NCBI GenBank assembly: GCA_944327625.1
Contig: CALVHL010000025.1
Coordinates: 19,648 to 83,647, forward strand
Source: an uncultured Clostridia bacterium
GTDB taxonomy: Bacteria > Bacillota > Clostridia > Christensenellales > Borkfalkiaceae
DNA length: 64,000 bases
Direction: 5' to 3'
Shown piece after piece: positions 4,673-43,400 of the stretch. The stretch's first letter is position 1. Every line of letters starts with the position of its first letter. The notes beneath the pieces were generated by a model. It saw only the letters and a program-made list of their open reading frames with translations, was not told the origin of the DNA and did no database searches. The position numbers and the translations under genes were made by a program.

Positions 4673-4910
4673 TCCTTTCCTCCATTTTCGGCGGCAATAC
4701 GCTTGTCCGTCAGCTTTTCGGGCACGGACGGGAATTTGCCTCCCCGTCCCGATCTTACGTACAGACGCAATACCGCACTTTTTTGCATATTATATTTTAT
4801 CACGCGCGCCCGCCCGTGTCAACATATCATTGTAAAATATTATCTTTTACTGTTAAGGTTTAACTGATTTTTACGGATTTTTTTGCGCTTTTCTGACATT
4901 AAAACGCATT

Positions 4911-4939
4911 GCGCGGGGCGAAATTCCCTTCGCCCGCGC
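4911..4939 (-). terminator. GC-rich hairpin downstream of the GH105 gene
   Basis: The stem-loop is gcgcggggcgaa-attccc-ttcgcccgcgc, 30 bp past the GH105 stop. The U-tract on the minus strand is weak (aatgcgtttt). Confidence 0.45.
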
Positions 4940-4968
4940 AAAATTGCTTAGTTTTTCTTAAATTTTTA

Positions 4969-6099
4969 TTAAAGTTGCTTTATTTCGGTATACGCCATTA
5001 CGAACGGTCCCGTGCCCTTGGCGTCGTTCTCGACGACGGGCTCGGAAATATAGTACTCGTAACTGCCGTCCCTGCGGCGATTACTCTCGGGGCCGAGCCC
5101 CGCAACCAGACATATTCCGCCGAGGTTGAGCTTGCCGTCCGTTTGGGTGAGGTATTTCTTGCAAATACCCTCGAATACTGCCTTGCCGACCGCCGAGAAC
5201 CGCGCGTCCACATAACCGAGGCGCGCGCCTTTGAGCATTGCGTAGGCGATCATGGACGAGCCCGAAGTTTCGGGATAGTTGCCCTCGTCGCCCACTCTGT
5301 CGACGACCTGCCAGAACATATTAGTGTCGGGATCGATATACCTTTCCAGCCCCTCTATGGTGTTGCGGAAGATTTCGGCGAGCGTCGCCTTCTCCTCCTT
5401 CTTGTCCTCGGGCATATAGGAGAGTACGTCTATGAGCCCTACGGTGTACCAGCCGATAGAGCGAAGCCAGAAATTTTTGGAAAGCCCCGTCGTCTTGTCC
5501 GCCCAGAAAGCAGTCTTGCTTGCGTCCCAGCCGTGATAGTAGAGCCGCTTATTCTTGTCGTACATATTGTCATATATGCTGACAAACTGCTTTACTATCT
5601 CCGAAAAGTCGCCGTCGCCGCGCTCTGCGACGTAGCGGGTATAGAACACTTCCGACATATATATGCCGTCCAGCCAGACCTGGTTGGGATAGATGAGCTT
5701 ATGCCAGAAGTTGCCGTATTCCGTGCGCGGCTGTCTGACTATCTGTTCGTGCAGCAGCTCTATCGCCTTATTGTACTTCTCCTTGCCCGTCTCGGCATAC
5801 AGGTCGAAAAGTATTCTGCCCTCGTTGAGATTGTCGAGGTTGTACGTTTCGAGGTCGTAGCCGAGTATGCTGCCGTCCTCGCGCACGTAGTAGTCGACGA
5901 ACTTATCGATGAAATCGAGATATTTTCTGTCGCCCGTCTGCCTGTATATGCTGTAAAGCGAGGTCATCATGCAGCCGTCGATATAGTTCCAGCCAGGCTT
6001 TTTGCCATGGCGGATATTCTCTATGTTCCATATCGGCGCGTCGGGCGTAGTCTCCTCGATGAGCCTGTCGATATACCTGTCAATTATTTCATAAGCCAT
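4969..6099 (-). CDS. unsaturated rhamnogalacturonyl/galacturonyl hydrolase, GH105 (YteR/YesR-like)
   Basis: 376 aa with NQVWLDGIYM, HGWDASK, FWLRSIGW and PETSGSSMIAYAMLKG segments typical of GH105. ATG start with a G-rich RBS. Confidence 0.85.
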   Translation of the reverse strand: MAYEIIDRYIDRLIEETTPDAPIWNIENIRHGKKPGWNYIDGCMMTSLYSIYRQTGDRKYLDFIDKFVDYYVREDGSILGYDLETYNLDNLNEGRILFDLYAETGKEKYNKAIELLHEQIVRQPRTEYGNFWHKLIYPNQVWLDGIYMSEVFYTRYVAERGDGDFSEIVKQFVSIYDNMYDKNKRLYYHGWDASKTAFWADKTTGLSKNFWLRSIGWYTVGLIDVLSYMPEDKKEEKATLAEIFRNTIEGLERYIDPDTNMFWQVVDRVGDEGNYPETSGSSMIAYAMLKGARLGYVDARFSAVGKAVFEGICKKYLTQTDGKLNLGGICLVAGLGPESNRRRDGSYEYYISEPVVENDAKGTGPFVMAYTEIKQL

Positions 6100-6116
6100 A
6101 AATCTCCCCCCCCGCG

Positions 6117-7658
6117 TCAGGCAATTGTCAGCTTATCGCACTTCTTTTTGATTATCTTGTCGCCCTCTACGCCCTCGAAAGTGACGTTTTTGAGCGTAAG
6201 ACTTTCGACGTTGTCGACGTAGATGCCTTCCTTGCAGTAATCTCTGACAAATTCGAGCATTGCGGGCTTGAAGGGCTTTGCGTCCTGCTTGAACGAGAAG
6301 GAGACGTTTTCAAGCACTATCTCCTTGACGGGCTGTTCGACGAGACCGTCGAAATATGCGCACATACACTCGCAATCGACGCACTCTATGTCCCTGAAAT
6401 GGAACCTGCCCATATACGGCGTGTCGTCGCCGACGGGGTGCGGCTCTCTCGAATAGACGTATTCGGTATGTCCGTCCGGATCGCAGAAATAATACATATT
6501 GATGACGAGCGGGGTGATGACGTTCTCCATTTTGATATTTTCAAAGAGTACGCCGTCGATTATGCAGTCCTTGCCCCTGCCGCGCCTCGACTTAATCCTC
6601 AGCCCCCTGTCGGTGTGTCTGAATACGCACTGGCAGACGGTCAGATTCTTTACGCCGCCCGAAATTTCGCTGCCCAGCACTATCGCGCCGTGTCCGTCGC
6701 GGAACAGGTCGTTCCTTATGGTGTGGTGGTTTGCGGGAGTCTTGTACTTCGCACCCATGTAGAGCTTGCCCGATTTGAGCGCGACGCAGTCGTCGCCCAC
6801 CGAGAATATGCAGCCGACTATCTCGACGTTGTCGCAGCTCTCGGGATCGAGCCCGTCGGTATTGGGACCGGTGTACGGGTTCTGCACCCTTATGTCGTAG
6901 AAGCCGAGGTTATTCGAGAAGAAGGGGTGCAGGTTCCACGCCGCCGAGTTCTTGCAGGTTACGCCGTGGAATACGACGTTTTCGCACTTGTTGAGCGTCA
7001 CCAGCCTCGGACGGGCGACCGCCCTGCCCTTGGGCGTTGCCCACCACGTCGATTTGTCGGCGTTGCCGTTGATTGCGCCCTCGCCGATAATCCTGATATT
7101 CTTCTGCTTGTACGCCGAAACAAAGGATTGGTGACAGGGGTGAGGGTTGCCCTCCCACGTCGCAAGCACTTCCTCCGTACCGTCGTCGTGCTCTATCTTG
7201 GCGGGAACGTAGGGATAGTGCTCCTCGACTATGTCGCCGAGCAGTTCGCCGCCCTTGTATATCTCGATAGTTATGTCCGAACGAAGCACTATCGGACGAA
7301 CGTAATAACTGCCCTCGGGTATGATTACTCTGCCGCCTTTGGGGCAACTGTCTATCGCCATCTGAACGTAATAGGTATCGTCCGAAACGCCGTCGCCCTT
7401 TGCGCCTAAATCGCGGACGTTGACCGTGCCGCTCTCCTTTTCGGTGCGGAAGGTCATAGTGTAGCCGTCGAGCGTCGTTCCGACGGTATATTGGGTGTCG
7501 GGGGTGAGGTTAAAGAGCGAAAATACGTTACAATCCTTCTCCTCCCCCGTCTTTTTGCCGCCAAGAAGCACCGTATATTTTTCGGGGCTGTAATAGGCGT
7601 TGTCATTTTCAAGCTCGAAACAAGCCGAAGTGCTTGAAACAAACAGCTTTTTAAACAC
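6117..7658 (-). CDS. GH28 (exo-)polygalacturonase
   Basis: The four GH28 signatures are present: NTDGLDP, GDDCVALKSG, GHGAIVLGSE and RGLRIKS. GTG start at 7656-7658, 6 nt after AAGGAGGAG. Confidence 0.9.
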   Translation of the reverse strand: MFKKLFVSSTSACFELENDNAYYSPEKYTVLLGGKKTGEEKDCNVFSLFNLTPDTQYTVGTTLDGYTMTFRTEKESGTVNVRDLGAKGDGVSDDTYYVQMAIDSCPKGGRVIIPEGSYYVRPIVLRSDITIEIYKGGELLGDIVEEHYPYVPAKIEHDDGTEEVLATWEGNPHPCHQSFVSAYKQKNIRIIGEGAINGNADKSTWWATPKGRAVARPRLVTLNKCENVVFHGVTCKNSAAWNLHPFFSNNLGFYDIRVQNPYTGPNTDGLDPESCDNVEIVGCIFSVGDDCVALKSGKLYMGAKYKTPANHHTIRNDLFRDGHGAIVLGSEISGGVKNLTVCQCVFRHTDRGLRIKSRRGRGKDCIIDGVLFENIKMENVITPLVINMYYFCDPDGHTEYVYSREPHPVGDDTPYMGRFHFRDIECVDCECMCAYFDGLVEQPVKEIVLENVSFSFKQDAKPFKPAMLEFVRDYCKEGIYVDNVESLTLKNVTFEGVEGDKIIKKKCDKLTIA

Positions 7659-35932: not shown

Positions 35933-36361
35933 TTACTTGATTGTATGCCCGCCTTTGAGATAGCTGCGGCGGATTTTAAGCTTGCTGACCGCCCTTGCGA
36001 GCTGCGCCTGCGCGGAGAAATACTGCTGTCTGGACAGCTTTTGAAGCATTGCCTCCTTTGCGTCCTCGGCTACGCGCTTAGCCCACTCCTCATCGATTTC
36101 CTCGGGACGGAGCACCGAGTCGGCGAGAATGAGCACGTCGTTATTCTCAATCTTCATTATACCCGCGGAGATTGCCGCGACCTGCGGCTCCTGCCCCGCC
36201 GCGCGGAAGCTGAGTTTGCCGGGGACTATCGCCGTTATCGCGTTGCTGTGCCCCGCCATTACGCCGTACTGACCGTCGACGGCGGGTATGGTAAGGCTTT
36301 CGCACTCGCCCTCGAAAAATATCCTCGTCGCGCTGAAAATGTGCGCAGTGAAAGTACGCAT
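35933..36361 (-). CDS. atpC: F-type ATP synthase subunit epsilon
   Basis: 142 aa, last gene of the atp operon, with epsilon-like N-terminal beta-sandwich sequence. Confidence 0.85.
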   Translation of the reverse strand: MRTFTAHIFSATRIFFEGECESLTIPAVDGQYGVMAGHSNAITAIVPGKLSFRAAGQEPQVAAISAGIMKIENNDVLILADSVLRPEEIDEEWAKRVAEDAKEAMLQKLSRQQYFSAQAQLARAVSKLKIRRSYLKGGHTIK

Positions 36362-36364
36362 CTT

Positions 36365-38661
<2,297 letters not shown>

Positions 38662-38673
38662 ATCTTCCGCCCT

Positions 38674-40704
38674 TTAATGCGCCGAACGCGCATAGTCCTC
38701 GGCAAACCCTCGCGCGCAGTCGATTATCTTCTGCCGAAGTTCGGCGGTTATCGCCCTGCCCGTCTTTATCTCCTCGCAGATTTCGGGCTGGTTCTGGTCG
38801 AAATAGTCTATGAGGCGGTTCTTGAAGTCGGGCATATAGTCGTAATGCACGCTCGTCAGCGCGTGGCCGAGCGCCGCGACGAGCACTATTACCTGACTGT
38901 GCATGGGTATGGGGCTGTACTGCGGCTGACGGAGGAGCATCATCAGGCTCTTGCCGTAGGAGAGCAGGTTCTTGGTCGCGTCGTCGAGGTCGGAGGAGAA
39001 CTGCATGAACACCTCCATTTCCCTGTACTGCGCGAGGTCGAGCCTTATCGCGCCCGCCGCCGACTTCATCGCCTTGGTCTGCGCGTCGCCGCCGACACGC
39101 GACACGGATATGCCGACGTTTACCGCGGGGCGCTGTCCCGAGAAGAATAGATCGCCCGCAAGGAAAATCTGTCCGTCGGTTATGGAAATTATGTTGGTAG
39201 GGATATATGCCGAGATGTCGCCCGCCTGCGTTTCGACGATGGGGAGCGCGGTCATGCTGCCGCCGCCCTTTTCGTCCGAGAGGTGCGCGGCACGCTCCAA
39301 CAGCCTCGAATGCAGATAGAATACGTCGCCGGGGTACGCCTCTCTGCCGGGCGAACGCCCCAAGAGCAGGCTGAGCGCACGGTATGCCACGGCGTGCTTT
39401 GAGAGGTCGTCGTAGACTATGAGCACGTCCTTGCCCTGCTGCATGAAGTATTCTGCCATTGCACAGCCCGAATAGGGCGCGATATACTGCATTGCCGCGC
39501 CGTCGCCCGCGAACGAGCAGACGAGCACGGTATAGTCCATTGCACCCTTCTTTTTGAGCGCTTCCCTAAGTCTTGCGACCGAGCTGGACTTCTGCCCGAT
39601 TGCGACATATATGCAGATTACGTCCTTGCCCTTCTGGTTGAGTATGGTATCGATAGCGACGGCGGTCTTGCCCGTCTGTCTGTCGCCTATTATGAGTTCT
39701 CGCTGACCTCTGCCTATGGGGAACATTGCGTCGATTGCGAGTATGCCCGTCTCCAAGGGGCGATTGACGGGCTGTCTGTCGATTATGCCCGGCGCAGCCG
39801 CCTCAATGGGCATATACCTCTCTGCCTTAATGGGTGCGCCGCCGTCTATGGGCGAGCCGAGGGCGTCCACCGCCCTGCCTATCAGTCCGTCGCCCGCGGG
39901 TACGCCCGCCGTCTTGCCCGTGCGGTAGACCGCGCTGCCTTCCTCTATGTCGCGCTCGTCGCCGAACAGCATTACGCCGACGTCGCCGTCAGAAAGCTCC
40001 TGCACCATGCCCTTTACGCCGCATTCAAAGGCGACTATTTCGCCGTATCTGACGAGGTCGAGCCCGCTCACCCTCGCGATGGAGTCGCCGACGGAGATAA
40101 CCCTGCCCGCCTCGCTCGCGCCGAGCGACATCTGCCATTCGGCAATAGCCGACTTTATGCCCTCTACGCTGTCTTTGAGGAGGGGAATTACGCCCGACGA
40201 CATATTGTCGCGTATGTCCTGCTTCAATCGGTTGAGCCTGCCCTGCGCCGTCCAGTCGTAGACGTTGTCGCCGTATTCGAGGCGGAAGCCGCCGACCACC
40301 GATTGGTCTATGACTATTTCAATCTCGGGGCGGACGCCGTATGTGCGCTGCAAGAAGTCGCGCATGCCCTCCCTCTGCGCCGCGTCGGGGGGATTTACGC
40401 AGTAGAGCTTTGCCGAGGGCGCAGCCTGAGGAGCGCAAGCCGTCTGCCCTTCGGGCGCGGCCTTTCTTATGCTCTCCTTTATGCTCTCAACCTTGCCGCG
40501 GGCGGAATAGTCGAACACCTTTCCGCCGTATTCGAGGCGGAAGCCGCCGCCGACCGATTTATCTATGATTATCTCTATTTCGGGGCGTTCGCCGAAAGTG
40601 CGTTGAAGGAAATCGCGTATTCCCGCCGTCTGCTTCTCGTCGGGCGGGGTTATGCAAAAGAGTTTGGCGCGTTCAGCCGCGCCGACCTTTTTCTTTTCAG
40701 CCAT
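38674..40704 (-). CDS. atpA: F-type ATP synthase subunit alpha with an in-frame N-terminal extension of about 170 aa made of two delta(OSCP) C-terminal-domain-like repeats
   Basis: The alpha core carries GDRQTGKT. The N-terminus has two copies of AKL(F/Y)C..PPD....G(I/M)RDFLQRT(F/Y)G.RPEIE(I/V).ID.SV.GGFRLEYG..V(F/Y)D. No stop codon separates them from alpha. The ATG at 40702-40704 overlaps the atpF end. Confidence 0.85.
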   Translation of the reverse strand: MAEKKKVGAAERAKLFCITPPDEKQTAGIRDFLQRTFGERPEIEIIIDKSVGGGFRLEYGGKVFDYSARGKVESIKESIRKAAPEGQTACAPQAAPSAKLYCVNPPDAAQREGMRDFLQRTYGVRPEIEIVIDQSVVGGFRLEYGDNVYDWTAQGRLNRLKQDIRDNMSSGVIPLLKDSVEGIKSAIAEWQMSLGASEAGRVISVGDSIARVSGLDLVRYGEIVAFECGVKGMVQELSDGDVGVMLFGDERDIEEGSAVYRTGKTAGVPAGDGLIGRAVDALGSPIDGGAPIKAERYMPIEAAAPGIIDRQPVNRPLETGILAIDAMFPIGRGQRELIIGDRQTGKTAVAIDTILNQKGKDVICIYVAIGQKSSSVARLREALKKKGAMDYTVLVCSFAGDGAAMQYIAPYSGCAMAEYFMQQGKDVLIVYDDLSKHAVAYRALSLLLGRSPGREAYPGDVFYLHSRLLERAAHLSDEKGGGSMTALPIVETQAGDISAYIPTNIISITDGQIFLAGDLFFSGQRPAVNVGISVSRVGGDAQTKAMKSAAGAIRLDLAQYREMEVFMQFSSDLDDATKNLLSYGKSLMMLLRQPQYSPIPMHSQVIVLVAALGHALTSVHYDYMPDFKNRLIDYFDQNQPEICEEIKTGRAITAELRQKIIDCARGFAEDYARSAH

Positions 40705-41398
40705 TGCTCTTGCCCCCGTTGACGCTCTTTAAGAATTCGTCGTAGACTGCGCCGTCGCTCGTCGCCGTCCGCGCCTTCTCCATTGCGGCAAGCGCGGCCT
40801 GACCGACTATGTCGGCAACGTCGCCGCCCTCCTCCGCCTTTTCCTCGGCGGTGCGGTTGAGGCGCTCGGCAAGCGTCGCCCTTGCCTCCTCCGACACGCC
40901 GCTGACGGTCAGGTCGGACTGAGCGGTTTTAAGATAGCTGTCGTAGAGCGCGCTGTCGTTTTCGGGCGTGCTGCCGACGACCAGCAGCTTTTCCGCCGAC
41001 TGAACGACCATCTTGGCAATCTCGTCGCTCGCCTGCGCCATATACGCGGCGCGTTCCTGCTCTGCGCGGGTTTTGCCGTCGGCTATAATCGCGCGGGCGC
41101 GTTCCTCCGCGTCCGTGACTATCTTCTTGCCTTCCTTTTCGCTGCGGGATATGAGTTCCCTGCGCTTAGCCTCCATTTCGCCGTCCAGACCTGCAAGCTT
41201 TTCCTCGCGCTGTCTGTCCAGCTCGGCTATCTCCTCCTTTCTCTTTGCGTGTTCTTCGGCAGACTTTTTATACTTCTCCTCGCGCTCGCGCATGAACTTG
41301 CGCACGGGCTTGAAAAGGAGCAGCGAAAGCCCCGTCGCCAGAATGAGAAAGTTGAAGACGTGCAGCAATATCTGCTGCCAATCTATGTTCAAAGGCAT
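40697..41398 (-). CDS. atpF: F-type ATP synthase subunit b with an extra C-terminal region of about 70 aa
   Basis: N-terminal TM helix followed by a long charged coiled coil. 233 aa versus about 160-175 aa for typical b subunits. RBS AAGGAGG. Confidence 0.85.
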   Translation of the reverse strand: MPLNIDWQQILLHVFNFLILATGLSLLLFKPVRKFMREREEKYKKSAEEHAKRKEEIAELDRQREEKLAGLDGEMEAKRRELISRSEKEGKKIVTDAEERARAIIADGKTRAEQERAAYMAQASDEIAKMVVQSAEKLLVVGSTPENDSALYDSYLKTAQSDLTVSGVSEEARATLAERLNRTAEEKAEEGGDVADIVGQAALAAMEKARTATSDGAVYDEFLKSVNGGKSNG

Positions 41399-42024: not shown

Positions 42025-42888
42025 TTACGCGGGCTGTGCGCCCTTTTCGCGCCGCTTTTTAGCGCGTTTGGGCTTTCTTATATACGGCTCTGTAACCTCC
42101 CCGAAATAGGTCGAGGTGAGCAGCACGAGGACGTAGGTCTGCACGAGCGCGTGCATGAGCGTGAACAGTATGCCGACCGCGACGGGCAGCACAACGCTGA
42201 GCGCAATGGTGTAGTAGACGAGCTCGGTGACCAAAAGTCCGCTCAAAAGCGCGCCGAACAGACGGAAGCTCATGGACACGGGCAGCGAAAATTCCTTGAT
42301 CGCCCTGCCGAAGCCGCGGATACCGCACTGCGCTATGCCGCCGCCCATTATGAACAGATAGGAAAGACAGCCCATGGCTATCGCCGCGTTGATGTCCGAA
42401 AGGGGCGCGGGCAGGGATACGACGTAGCCCTCGGTCGTCGTCCACTGTACGCCGAACAGCTCGAACAGCGTTCCGAAGCAGACGTAGCAGCCCGCCGAGA
42501 ATATGTAACAGCCTAAAATGTTGTTGCTGTGCGGGCTGTTGTTTCGCGCCATGTCGTCGAAAAAGCCGACGAGCGCCTCTATCGCCGTCTGGAACTTGCC
42601 CGGCACTTCCCTGAAGCGGGGAATGGCGAAAATTCTTATGACGAGCGCCGCGAGAAGCAGTATGCCCGTGACAATAAACGCCGATATTGCCGCAGGGTTT
42701 ACCGCCCAGCCGAACAGATTTATCTTGTTCTCCTCGTGCAGAACGGCGTCTTTAAGCTCCTCGGAAAGGCTGCCCGACCGCTCGCCCGCGCCGATGAGTA
42801 TCGCCCCGACGAGCGACGCAATCAGCACGGCGACGACCGCGGCAAGTATAAAATATTTCTTGCTTAAAGGTTTTCTTACGTCCTTCAT
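42025..42888 (-). CDS. atpB: F-type ATP synthase subunit a
   Basis: Polytopic protein, first gene of the operon, with the conserved Arg region ...LPVSMSFRLFGALLSG... The ATG at 42886-42888 follows GGGAGAGG. Confidence 0.88.
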   Translation of the reverse strand: MKDVRKPLSKKYFILAAVVAVLIASLVGAILIGAGERSGSLSEELKDAVLHEENKINLFGWAVNPAAISAFIVTGILLLAALVIRIFAIPRFREVPGKFQTAIEALVGFFDDMARNNSPHSNNILGCYIFSAGCYVCFGTLFELFGVQWTTTEGYVVSLPAPLSDINAAIAMGCLSYLFIMGGGIAQCGIRGFGRAIKEFSLPVSMSFRLFGALLSGLLVTELVYYTIALSVVLPVAVGILFTLMHALVQTYVLVLLTSTYFGEVTEPYIRKPKRAKKRREKGAQPA

Positions 42889-43400
42889 AGACCTCTCCCG
42901 CCCCGCCGCGGCAACTCCGCCGACGGGAACGCACATAAAATTAGTTGCGCTTGCAACCTTTCGTCTTTAAAATTATCCGCACCTTGCCGTGCGGTAAAAA
43001 AATAAACGCCACAGGACAGGAAATAACCTGCCGCGCGACGCTTCTCAACGAGATACGGTAAAATACGCGGCGGCTTGCCGCCGTAACTATTTGACCGACG
43101 CCACGCGACGTCGTCTCAGCCGCCCGCGCGCGGCTGCCGACTTCTTCCCCTCACCGTTTACGCTATTCTACTTCAAACTTCGTATTCTGTCAAATGTTAT
43201 TTGCCCTGCCGCCCCCTTTTTCGACAATAACAATTATTTTGCGCGAATATAACAATTTGTTTTGCCATAAATAACCTTAATTTCCGCCCGCCGCGCCGTA
43301 TTTGCCCTGAAATGGTGGCGCGCCCCCGAACAGCCATTCGGGGGCGCGCACATTCCTCATATATCTTTCTCCGTCCGTCGGAGCGGTTAAACATAATACA

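Follow-up and report, generated by a model that had tools for sequence, protein, structure and literature searches.

Tandem delta C-terminal domains fused to the ATP synthase alpha subunit, and a duplicated b tail, in Coproplasma-like Clostridia

Results

An atp operon without atpH and with two delta C-terminal domains on alpha

We analysed a stretch of 64,000 nucleotides (the window) on contig CALVHL010000025.1 of an uncultured Clostridia bacterium (assembly GCA_944327625.1), which carries a complete F-type ATP synthase operon on its minus strand. The list of open reading frames (ORFs) and Pfam matches yielded the gene order atpB-atpE-atpF-atpA-atpG-atpD-atpC, i.e., the standard F-type order in which only atpH, encoding subunit delta, was not found. 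The seven genes are compactly arranged. The stop codon of atpF overlaps the start of atpA (ATGGCTGA), which is preceded at a distance of 9 nt by a G-rich stretch. A previous sequence-only reading of this DNA had proposed that atpH is missing, that two delta C-terminal domains are instead fused in frame to alpha, that the delta N-terminal helical bundle is absent, and that a stalk-binding module is thus present on every alpha. All four claims were borne out by profile searches.

The delta profile PF00213 (OSCP/delta) matched the N-terminal part of the 676-amino acid (aa) AtpA twice, with an E-value of 2.9e-20, and each matching stretch corresponds to profile positions ~105-171 of 172. The same two stretches were matched by TIGR01145 (57.7 bits, cut-off 57.5) and by several delta equivalog models. 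The repeats, located at residues 13-79 and 98-164 (67 aa each), share 61% identity at the protein and 73% at the DNA level. They are followed, in one reading frame and with no intervening stop codon, by an F1 alpha subunit that was recognized by TIGR00962 at residues 178-671 (732.2 bits, cut-off 484.45) and contains all three Pfam alpha domains, namely the beta-barrel (PF02874), the nucleotide-binding domain (PF00006), and the C-terminal domain (PF00306). The second repeat aligns with residues 109-175 of Bacillus PS3 delta and with the delta part of an engineered delta-alpha fusion (PDB 9JC1), whose chain I is collinear with AtpA residues 100-653. The joint between this repeat and the alpha N-terminal helix is only ~5-8 residues long.

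In a six-frame PF00213 search of the whole genome (1.83 Mb, 96.9% complete) at E<=10, the two atpA stretches were the only matches, and neither a separate atpH nor any other delta was detected. The delta N-terminal helical bundle (profile positions 1-104) likewise had no match at this threshold in the atpA ORF or in the genome. Because only the two atpA stretches were matched genome-wide, the bundle is absent from the organism and not just from the locus. The two tandem delta C-domains thus appear to be the sole delta of this organism, with one pair per alpha.

Structure prediction with AlphaFold2 gave each repeat a beta-alpha-beta-beta-beta-alpha order, which is the topology of the delta C-domain, with predicted local distance difference test (pLDDT) values of ~65-75 for repeat 1. 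The linker between the repeats was predicted to be disordered (pLDDT <50 at residues 79-94), and the alpha N-terminal helix at residues 172-189 is kept in the model. The operon's subunits did not fall into the mycobacterial b-delta or the N-ATPase families. The b-delta model NF009961 gave E=0.24 and 10.5 bits against a cut-off of 328, and both models of the N-ATPase (alternate F1Fo) scored below their cut-offs, TIGR03324 (alpha) with 603 vs 750.5 bits and TIGR03321 (b) with 36 vs 224.7 bits. Coordinates of all features are compiled in Table 1.

Table 1. Genes and domains of the atp operon, with positions in the window, strand, and supporting evidence or remarks.
Feature	Position	Strand	Evidence or remark
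atpB (subunit a), ORF	42025-42936	-	ORF list, Pfam
atpB, likely coding part from M17 of the listed ORF	42025-42888	-	Pfam, alignment of a subunits
atpE (subunit c), 137 aa	41453-41866	-	PF00137 over residues 70-133
atpF (subunit b), 233 aa	40697-41398	-	PF00430 over residues 10-139
b tail copy 1 (residues 123-161, ...SAEKLLVVGSTPENDSALYDSYLK...), where canonical b ends	40916-41032	-	End of the 164-aa b of L046
b tail copy 2 (residues 190-228, ...AALAAMEKARTATSDGAVYDEFLK...), added duplicate	40715-40831	-	hhalign, BLASTP, model
atpA, 676 aa, delta C-domain x2 + F1 alpha	38674-40704	-	TIGR00962, PF00213, PDB 9JC1 chain I
Repeat 1 (residues 13-79), distal delta/OSCP C-terminal domain	40468-40668	-	PF00213 genome match 40471-40671
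Inter-repeat linker (residues 80-97), Ala/Pro/Glu-rich	40414-40467	-	Variable in length and sequence among species
Repeat 2 (residues 98-164), proximal delta C-terminal domain	40213-40413	-	PF00213 genome match 40216-40413
Short joint and retained alpha N-terminal helix (residues 165-196), to the beta-barrel crown	40117-40212	-	Predicted helix 172-189
atpG (gamma), canonical	37765-38661	-	ORF list, Pfam
atpD (beta), canonical	36365-37768	-	ORF list, Pfam
atpC (epsilon), canonical	35933-36361	-	ORF list, Pfam

Subunit b carries a second copy of its tail

The C-terminal tail segment of subunit b is the region that binds delta. With 233 aa, the b subunit encoded in the window is considerably longer than its counterparts in other families of the order (158-167 aa) and in locus L046 of an uncultured Eubacterium sp. 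(164 aa). Canonical b proteins end exactly at the first tail copy. Comparison of tail copy 2 with copy 1 by hhalign, using profiles of 29 sequences, gave a probability of 96.4% and E=1.3e-9, and BLASTP aligned the copies with 31% identity over 58 aa. The structural model of b contains two successive helix-turn-helix tails, the second formed by helices at residues 194-208 and 215-227, which are joined by a helix at residues 170-188. Subunit b thus carries a tandem duplication of its own C-terminal tail. The possibility that the 95-aa extension of b represents a displaced delta N-domain was considered and rejected; AtpF had no OSCP match in Pfam and NCBIfam searches, and the profile-profile comparison identified the extension as a repeat of the b tail. 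The long form of b also accompanies alpha subunits with a single delta unit (L038-L045), so that the duplication of the tail does not track the duplication of the delta C-domain.

The fusion is conserved and under purifying selection

NCBI/ENA and Logan data contain at least 10 other contigs on which the identical 676-aa protein was called. Altogether, 90 protein clusters with an OSCP-plus-alpha architecture were found; those with two units measure 650-683 aa and those with one unit 576-631 aa. Among species-representative genomes, 30 loci were recovered, all of them from uncultured gut Clostridia and eight named Candidatus Coproplasma. Every locus had the order atpB-E-F-A-G-D-C without atpH; 21 encode two delta units, eight encode one unit, and one (L046) encodes a full-length delta joined to alpha. 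The same architecture was present in more than 20 species-level relatives, comprising Candidatus Coproplasma and related uncultured Clostridia, and the reading frame stays open in every ortholog across deep divergence. The fusion is hence conserved among relatives and not explained by an assembly frameshift, a caveat that had accompanied its first description.

Pairwise ratios of non-synonymous to synonymous substitution rates (dN/dS) ranged from 0.03 to 0.35 in repeat 1, from 0.05 to 0.23 in repeat 2, and from 0.07 to 0.19 in the alpha core. The values for the 18-residue linker, 0.26-2.05, are near-neutral. Both delta copies are therefore under purifying selection while the linker drifts, and these patterns indicate a genuine, selected gene fusion. 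In a tree of the 67-residue units, repeats 1 and 2 of the window's clade formed sister groups, and some single-copy forms were nested in each of them. This tree, which is poorly resolved and leaves a second clade unresolved, points tentatively to an ancient duplication, after which some species lost one copy or the other.

Lineage-specific extensions of subunits a and c

The N-terminus of subunit c (AtpE) is a helix that resembles a signal peptide, including an AxA-type site (...ALTASA/ET...), and is followed by an acidic low-complexity spacer and then the canonical hairpin. This extension was conserved in 29/29 Coproplasma-like loci and was absent in L046. Judged by eye, the residues of the ion site are M...E-T...Y, in which Met takes the place of the Gln found in Na+-binding c subunits, and the c subunit is probably specific for H+ rather than Na+. 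At its N-terminus, subunit a possesses an additional transmembrane helix, which the lineage conserves and the 239-aa a subunit of L046 lacks. The listed atpB ORF probably starts at M17, i.e., at window position 42888.

Free, fused, and multiplied delta forms in related bacteria

To place the fusion in the order, 301 genomes were sampled, of which 168 had an OSCP match; class counts were made by hand from the 150 matches listed. Among these, full-length delta was encoded in 24 genomes, a free, N-terminally deleted delta of 71-136 aa in ~50, and a delta C-domain within an uninterrupted ORF of at least 559 aa, i.e., a fused form, in ~42. The free N-terminally deleted delta was accordingly the commonest form among the listed matches, and loss of the delta N-domain is thus the norm in this order of Clostridia. 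In other families, the gene for such a free delta lies between those for a b of normal length and a normal alpha (L007, L009, L011, L014). These free deltas have neither an N-domain nor a covalent link to F1. The tandem form on alpha was limited to the window's genus among the matches listed (G000, G002, G004).

Multiplication of the delta C-domain also occurs without fusion. A library-wide search of metagenomes recovered free proteins of ~145 aa with two delta C-domains (P0168, P0186, P0192, P0203), and proteins of this kind are encoded between b and alpha at loci L047/L048. Further deltas of 254-412 aa combine an N-domain with two or three tandem C-domains (P0114, P0244, P0248, P0254, P0246), of which P0114 and P0244 have three C-domain copies. 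Multiplied free deltas may represent another route to several stalk-binding sites per complex. At locus L046 (positions 4710-6737) and in protein P0090, alpha is preceded in frame by a fused full-length delta that comprises both the N- and the C-domain; in L046, this fusion is accompanied by b and c subunits of normal length (164 and 72 aa, respectively). This form may be an intermediate between free delta and the fusion that lacks the N-domain. The library-wide search ran on protein representatives; at 50% clustering, full-length fused alphas are largely masked by canonical alpha representatives, and the search thus does not provide a census of fusions.

Genomic and physiological setting

An F-type alpha was present in five of the 25 sampled genomes of the genus defined by GTDB. 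V/A-type subunit I (V_ATPase_I) was not found in these five genomes, the window's genome included, and was present in most of the 20 genomes without an F-type alpha, so that the two ATPase types seem to exclude each other in this genus. Because the window's genome lacks V/A-type subunit I, the fused F-type enzyme is its only rotary ATPase. RnfD was encoded in this genome and in 38/41 relatives, and its presence indicates a low-energy ion pump beside the F-type enzyme.

Discussion

Relation to known ATP synthases

The sequence-only reading had named the b-delta fusion of mycobacteria as the known precedent, which proved incomplete, as the closest known system is an N-deleted delta fused to alpha. 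Ueno et al. (Nat Commun 2025; bioRxiv 2024; PMC12229609) engineered the Bacillus PS3 enzyme by deleting delta residues 2-104 and fusing residues 105-178 to the alpha N-terminus, and expressed it in Escherichia coli devoid of the native atp (unc) operon. In this fusion, b2 is bound in the canonical manner at each alpha, and the enzyme formed particles with one to three stalks and one to three a subunits, with an H+/ATP ratio of 5.8-5.9 as compared to 3.1 and a threshold membrane potential that was halved (PMC12229609). The same study reported natural single-copy fusions in Acidaminococcus fermentans and two more UniProt entries (D2RLW6, G4Q3K6, A0A1I2C5T3) and called a multi-stalk enzyme 'highly likely' there. 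Delta-alpha fusions with a shortened delta are also listed in a 2026 preprint by Mulkidjanian et al.

The fused alpha described here shares with the engineered and natural single-copy fusions the restriction to the delta C-domain, the short in-frame joint to alpha, and the lack of the delta N-domain. Since chain I of 9JC1 is collinear with most of the protein, repeat 2 plus alpha can be regarded as reproducing the engineered design, with repeat 1 as an extra upstream module. It differs in having two tandem delta C-domains per alpha instead of one, in the duplicated tail of b and the N-terminal extensions of a and c, which set it apart from the engineered and A. fermentans fusions, and in its occurrence in Coproplasma-like Clostridia, whereas the A. 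fermentans fusion belongs to Negativicutes.

More distant parallels concern other alterations of delta. The natural F1Fo of Chloroflexus, which has two stalks and two a subunits (PMC12002316), is likewise an F-type enzyme with an altered delta that allows more than one stalk; in it, the C-domain of delta rests against the alpha crown and binds one b from every dimer. The Chloroflexus delta is, however, free and has a shortened, dimerising N-domain, while in the window's operon the N-domain is gone and the C-domain is doubled and covalently attached to alpha. Canonical delta and mitochondrial OSCP (PF00213, TIGR01145) have a homologous C-terminal beta/alpha domain. Canonical delta is a separate subunit, present once per complex; the fused form would be present in six copies and lacks profile positions 1-104. 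In the mycobacterial b-delta protein (atpFH, e.g., PDB 7JG5 chain d), as in the b subunit of N-ATPases with its delta-C-like tail (TIGR03321), a delta-derived module is likewise covalently joined to a neighbour in the stator, and the repeats match proteins of both types weakly. The fusion partner in these cases is b, one per stalk, and not alpha, three per head. The delta-C proteins from metagenomes have the same C-domain, without the N-domain in most genomes of this order and multiplied in tandem in other lineages, but are free-standing.

A literature search that included the Ueno, Chloroflexus, and Mulkidjanian texts revealed neither a tandem delta C-domain on alpha nor its combination with a duplicated b tail. 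The earlier suggestion that a double delta-alpha fusion is undescribed consequently stands within this search; delta-alpha fusion as such has been described (PMC12229609). As far as we found, the doubled delta C-domain together with the matching doubled b tail is new, as are the lineage-specific N-terminal extensions of a and c and an F-type enzyme of this kind as sole rotary ATPase alongside RnfD.

A putative double-clamped joint between stalk and head

In canonical enzymes, the N-terminal bundle of delta occupies the three-fold axis, where it caps the alpha N-termini and limits the enzyme to one stalk. A rearranged peripheral stalk, as proposed previously for this operon, is plausible. We consider it somewhat likelier true than false that the tandem delta C-domains on every alpha replace delta, that b is bivalent too, and that the result is a double-clamped joint to which more than one stalk can bind. 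Both sides of the stalk-head joint are bivalent because the delta C-domain and the b tail are each duplicated, and more than one stalk could bind because each of the three alphas bears the module and the axis is free. Adjacent to the crown of alpha, repeat 2 would dock b tail 1 at the canonical height on b, and the distal repeat 1 would dock the distal b tail 2, such that a covalently anchored double clamp would replace the contact between the delta N-domain and alpha. Three equivalent, module-bearing alphas around an unblocked axis could then accommodate more than one b2 stalk, each with an a subunit, as in the engineered PS3 enzyme, and an enzyme with several stalks would translocate more ions per ATP and require a lower membrane potential for ATP synthesis. 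The pairing of repeats and tails and the number of stalks in the native enzyme are what we infer from this arrangement. A native enzyme that is obligately multi-stalked, in which each alpha clamps its own b2 through both repeat-tail pairs to give a3b6 per c-ring and an ion/ATP ratio ~3x canonical, is a bolder proposition that we regard as unlikely.

Several observations weigh against the double clamp with more than one stalk. Pairing of b tail 2 with repeat 1 is not obligatory, because the duplicated b tail is present in relatives with one delta C-domain (L038-L045). In another lineage (L047/L048), the free protein with two delta C-domains is encoded, in the one context read, beside a b that looks single-tailed when the 89-106 C-terminal residues recovered are judged by eye. 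Single-stalk particles were also among those of the engineered enzyme (PMC12229609). The conserved methionine M192 of AtpA could in principle start a shorter alpha, and the AlphaFold model as a whole is only moderately confident (mean pLDDT 66).

Alternative explanations

A serious rival, which we hold possible though somewhat doubtful, is that the fusion acts as a tether only. The enzyme would then have one stalk and one a subunit, with the fused C-domains standing in for the non-covalent contact of the delta N-domain with alpha; four or five of the modules would remain empty, and the second copies of the delta C-domain and the b tail would add avidity to this single joint. The single-stalk classes of the engineered enzyme are in line with such an arrangement, and the occurrence of the duplicated b tail with either one or two delta C-domains fits a reinforcement of the joint better than a counting of stalks. 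The extra N-terminal elements on a and c may have steric effects that act in this direction as well. However, no feature of the sequence limits binding to one alpha, the axis-blocking delta N-domain is absent genome-wide, and the same design averaged two stalks without further engineering (PMC12229609).

We deem it improbable that proteolytic processing or an internal start releases a free tandem delta-C protein (~165 aa) and an ordinary alpha, the fusion being a means of co-expression. Free proteins with two delta C-domains are indeed encoded between b and alpha in other lineages, free N-deleted deltas are common in the same order, and M192 lies 12 residues before the beta-barrel. This residue, part of a W-x-M motif (window ~40129-40131, minus strand), is conserved in all Coproplasma-like alphas. 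Its conservation is probably structural, because no consistent Shine-Dalgarno sequence precedes it, and translation from this position would yield an alpha without its N-terminal helix. Conservation is lacking for the ATG at residue 168, and an internal start for a plain alpha was accordingly judged unlikely at either position. The very short joint between repeat 2 and the alpha helix and the open frame in every ortholog likewise speak against separate products.

That assembly errors or a frameshift created the fusion from separate atpH and atpA genes deserves practically no credence. No observation in its favour was found, the identical protein occurs on independent contigs, the architecture is conserved across species under purifying selection, and no intact atpH could be restored from a genome devoid of the delta N-terminal half; conservation across independent assemblies refutes it.

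Implications for energy conservation

Ion use per ATP, and with it the lowest membrane potential at which ATP can be synthesized, follows from how many peripheral stalks and a subunits an F-type enzyme has. To our knowledge, every F-type enzyme was thought to be single-stalked until 2025. This view has been overturned by the engineered PS3 fusion (PMC12229609) and the structure of the Chloroflexus enzyme (PMC12002316). The locus described here is a naturally occurring and strongly conserved elaboration of the engineered design, in which both partners of the stalk-head joint are duplicated. If more than one stalk indeed binds, the high ion/ATP ratio would suit an Rnf-dependent gut fermenter that builds only a small membrane potential, and an obligately multi-stalk enzyme would allow such a fermenter to make ATP from a very small membrane potential.

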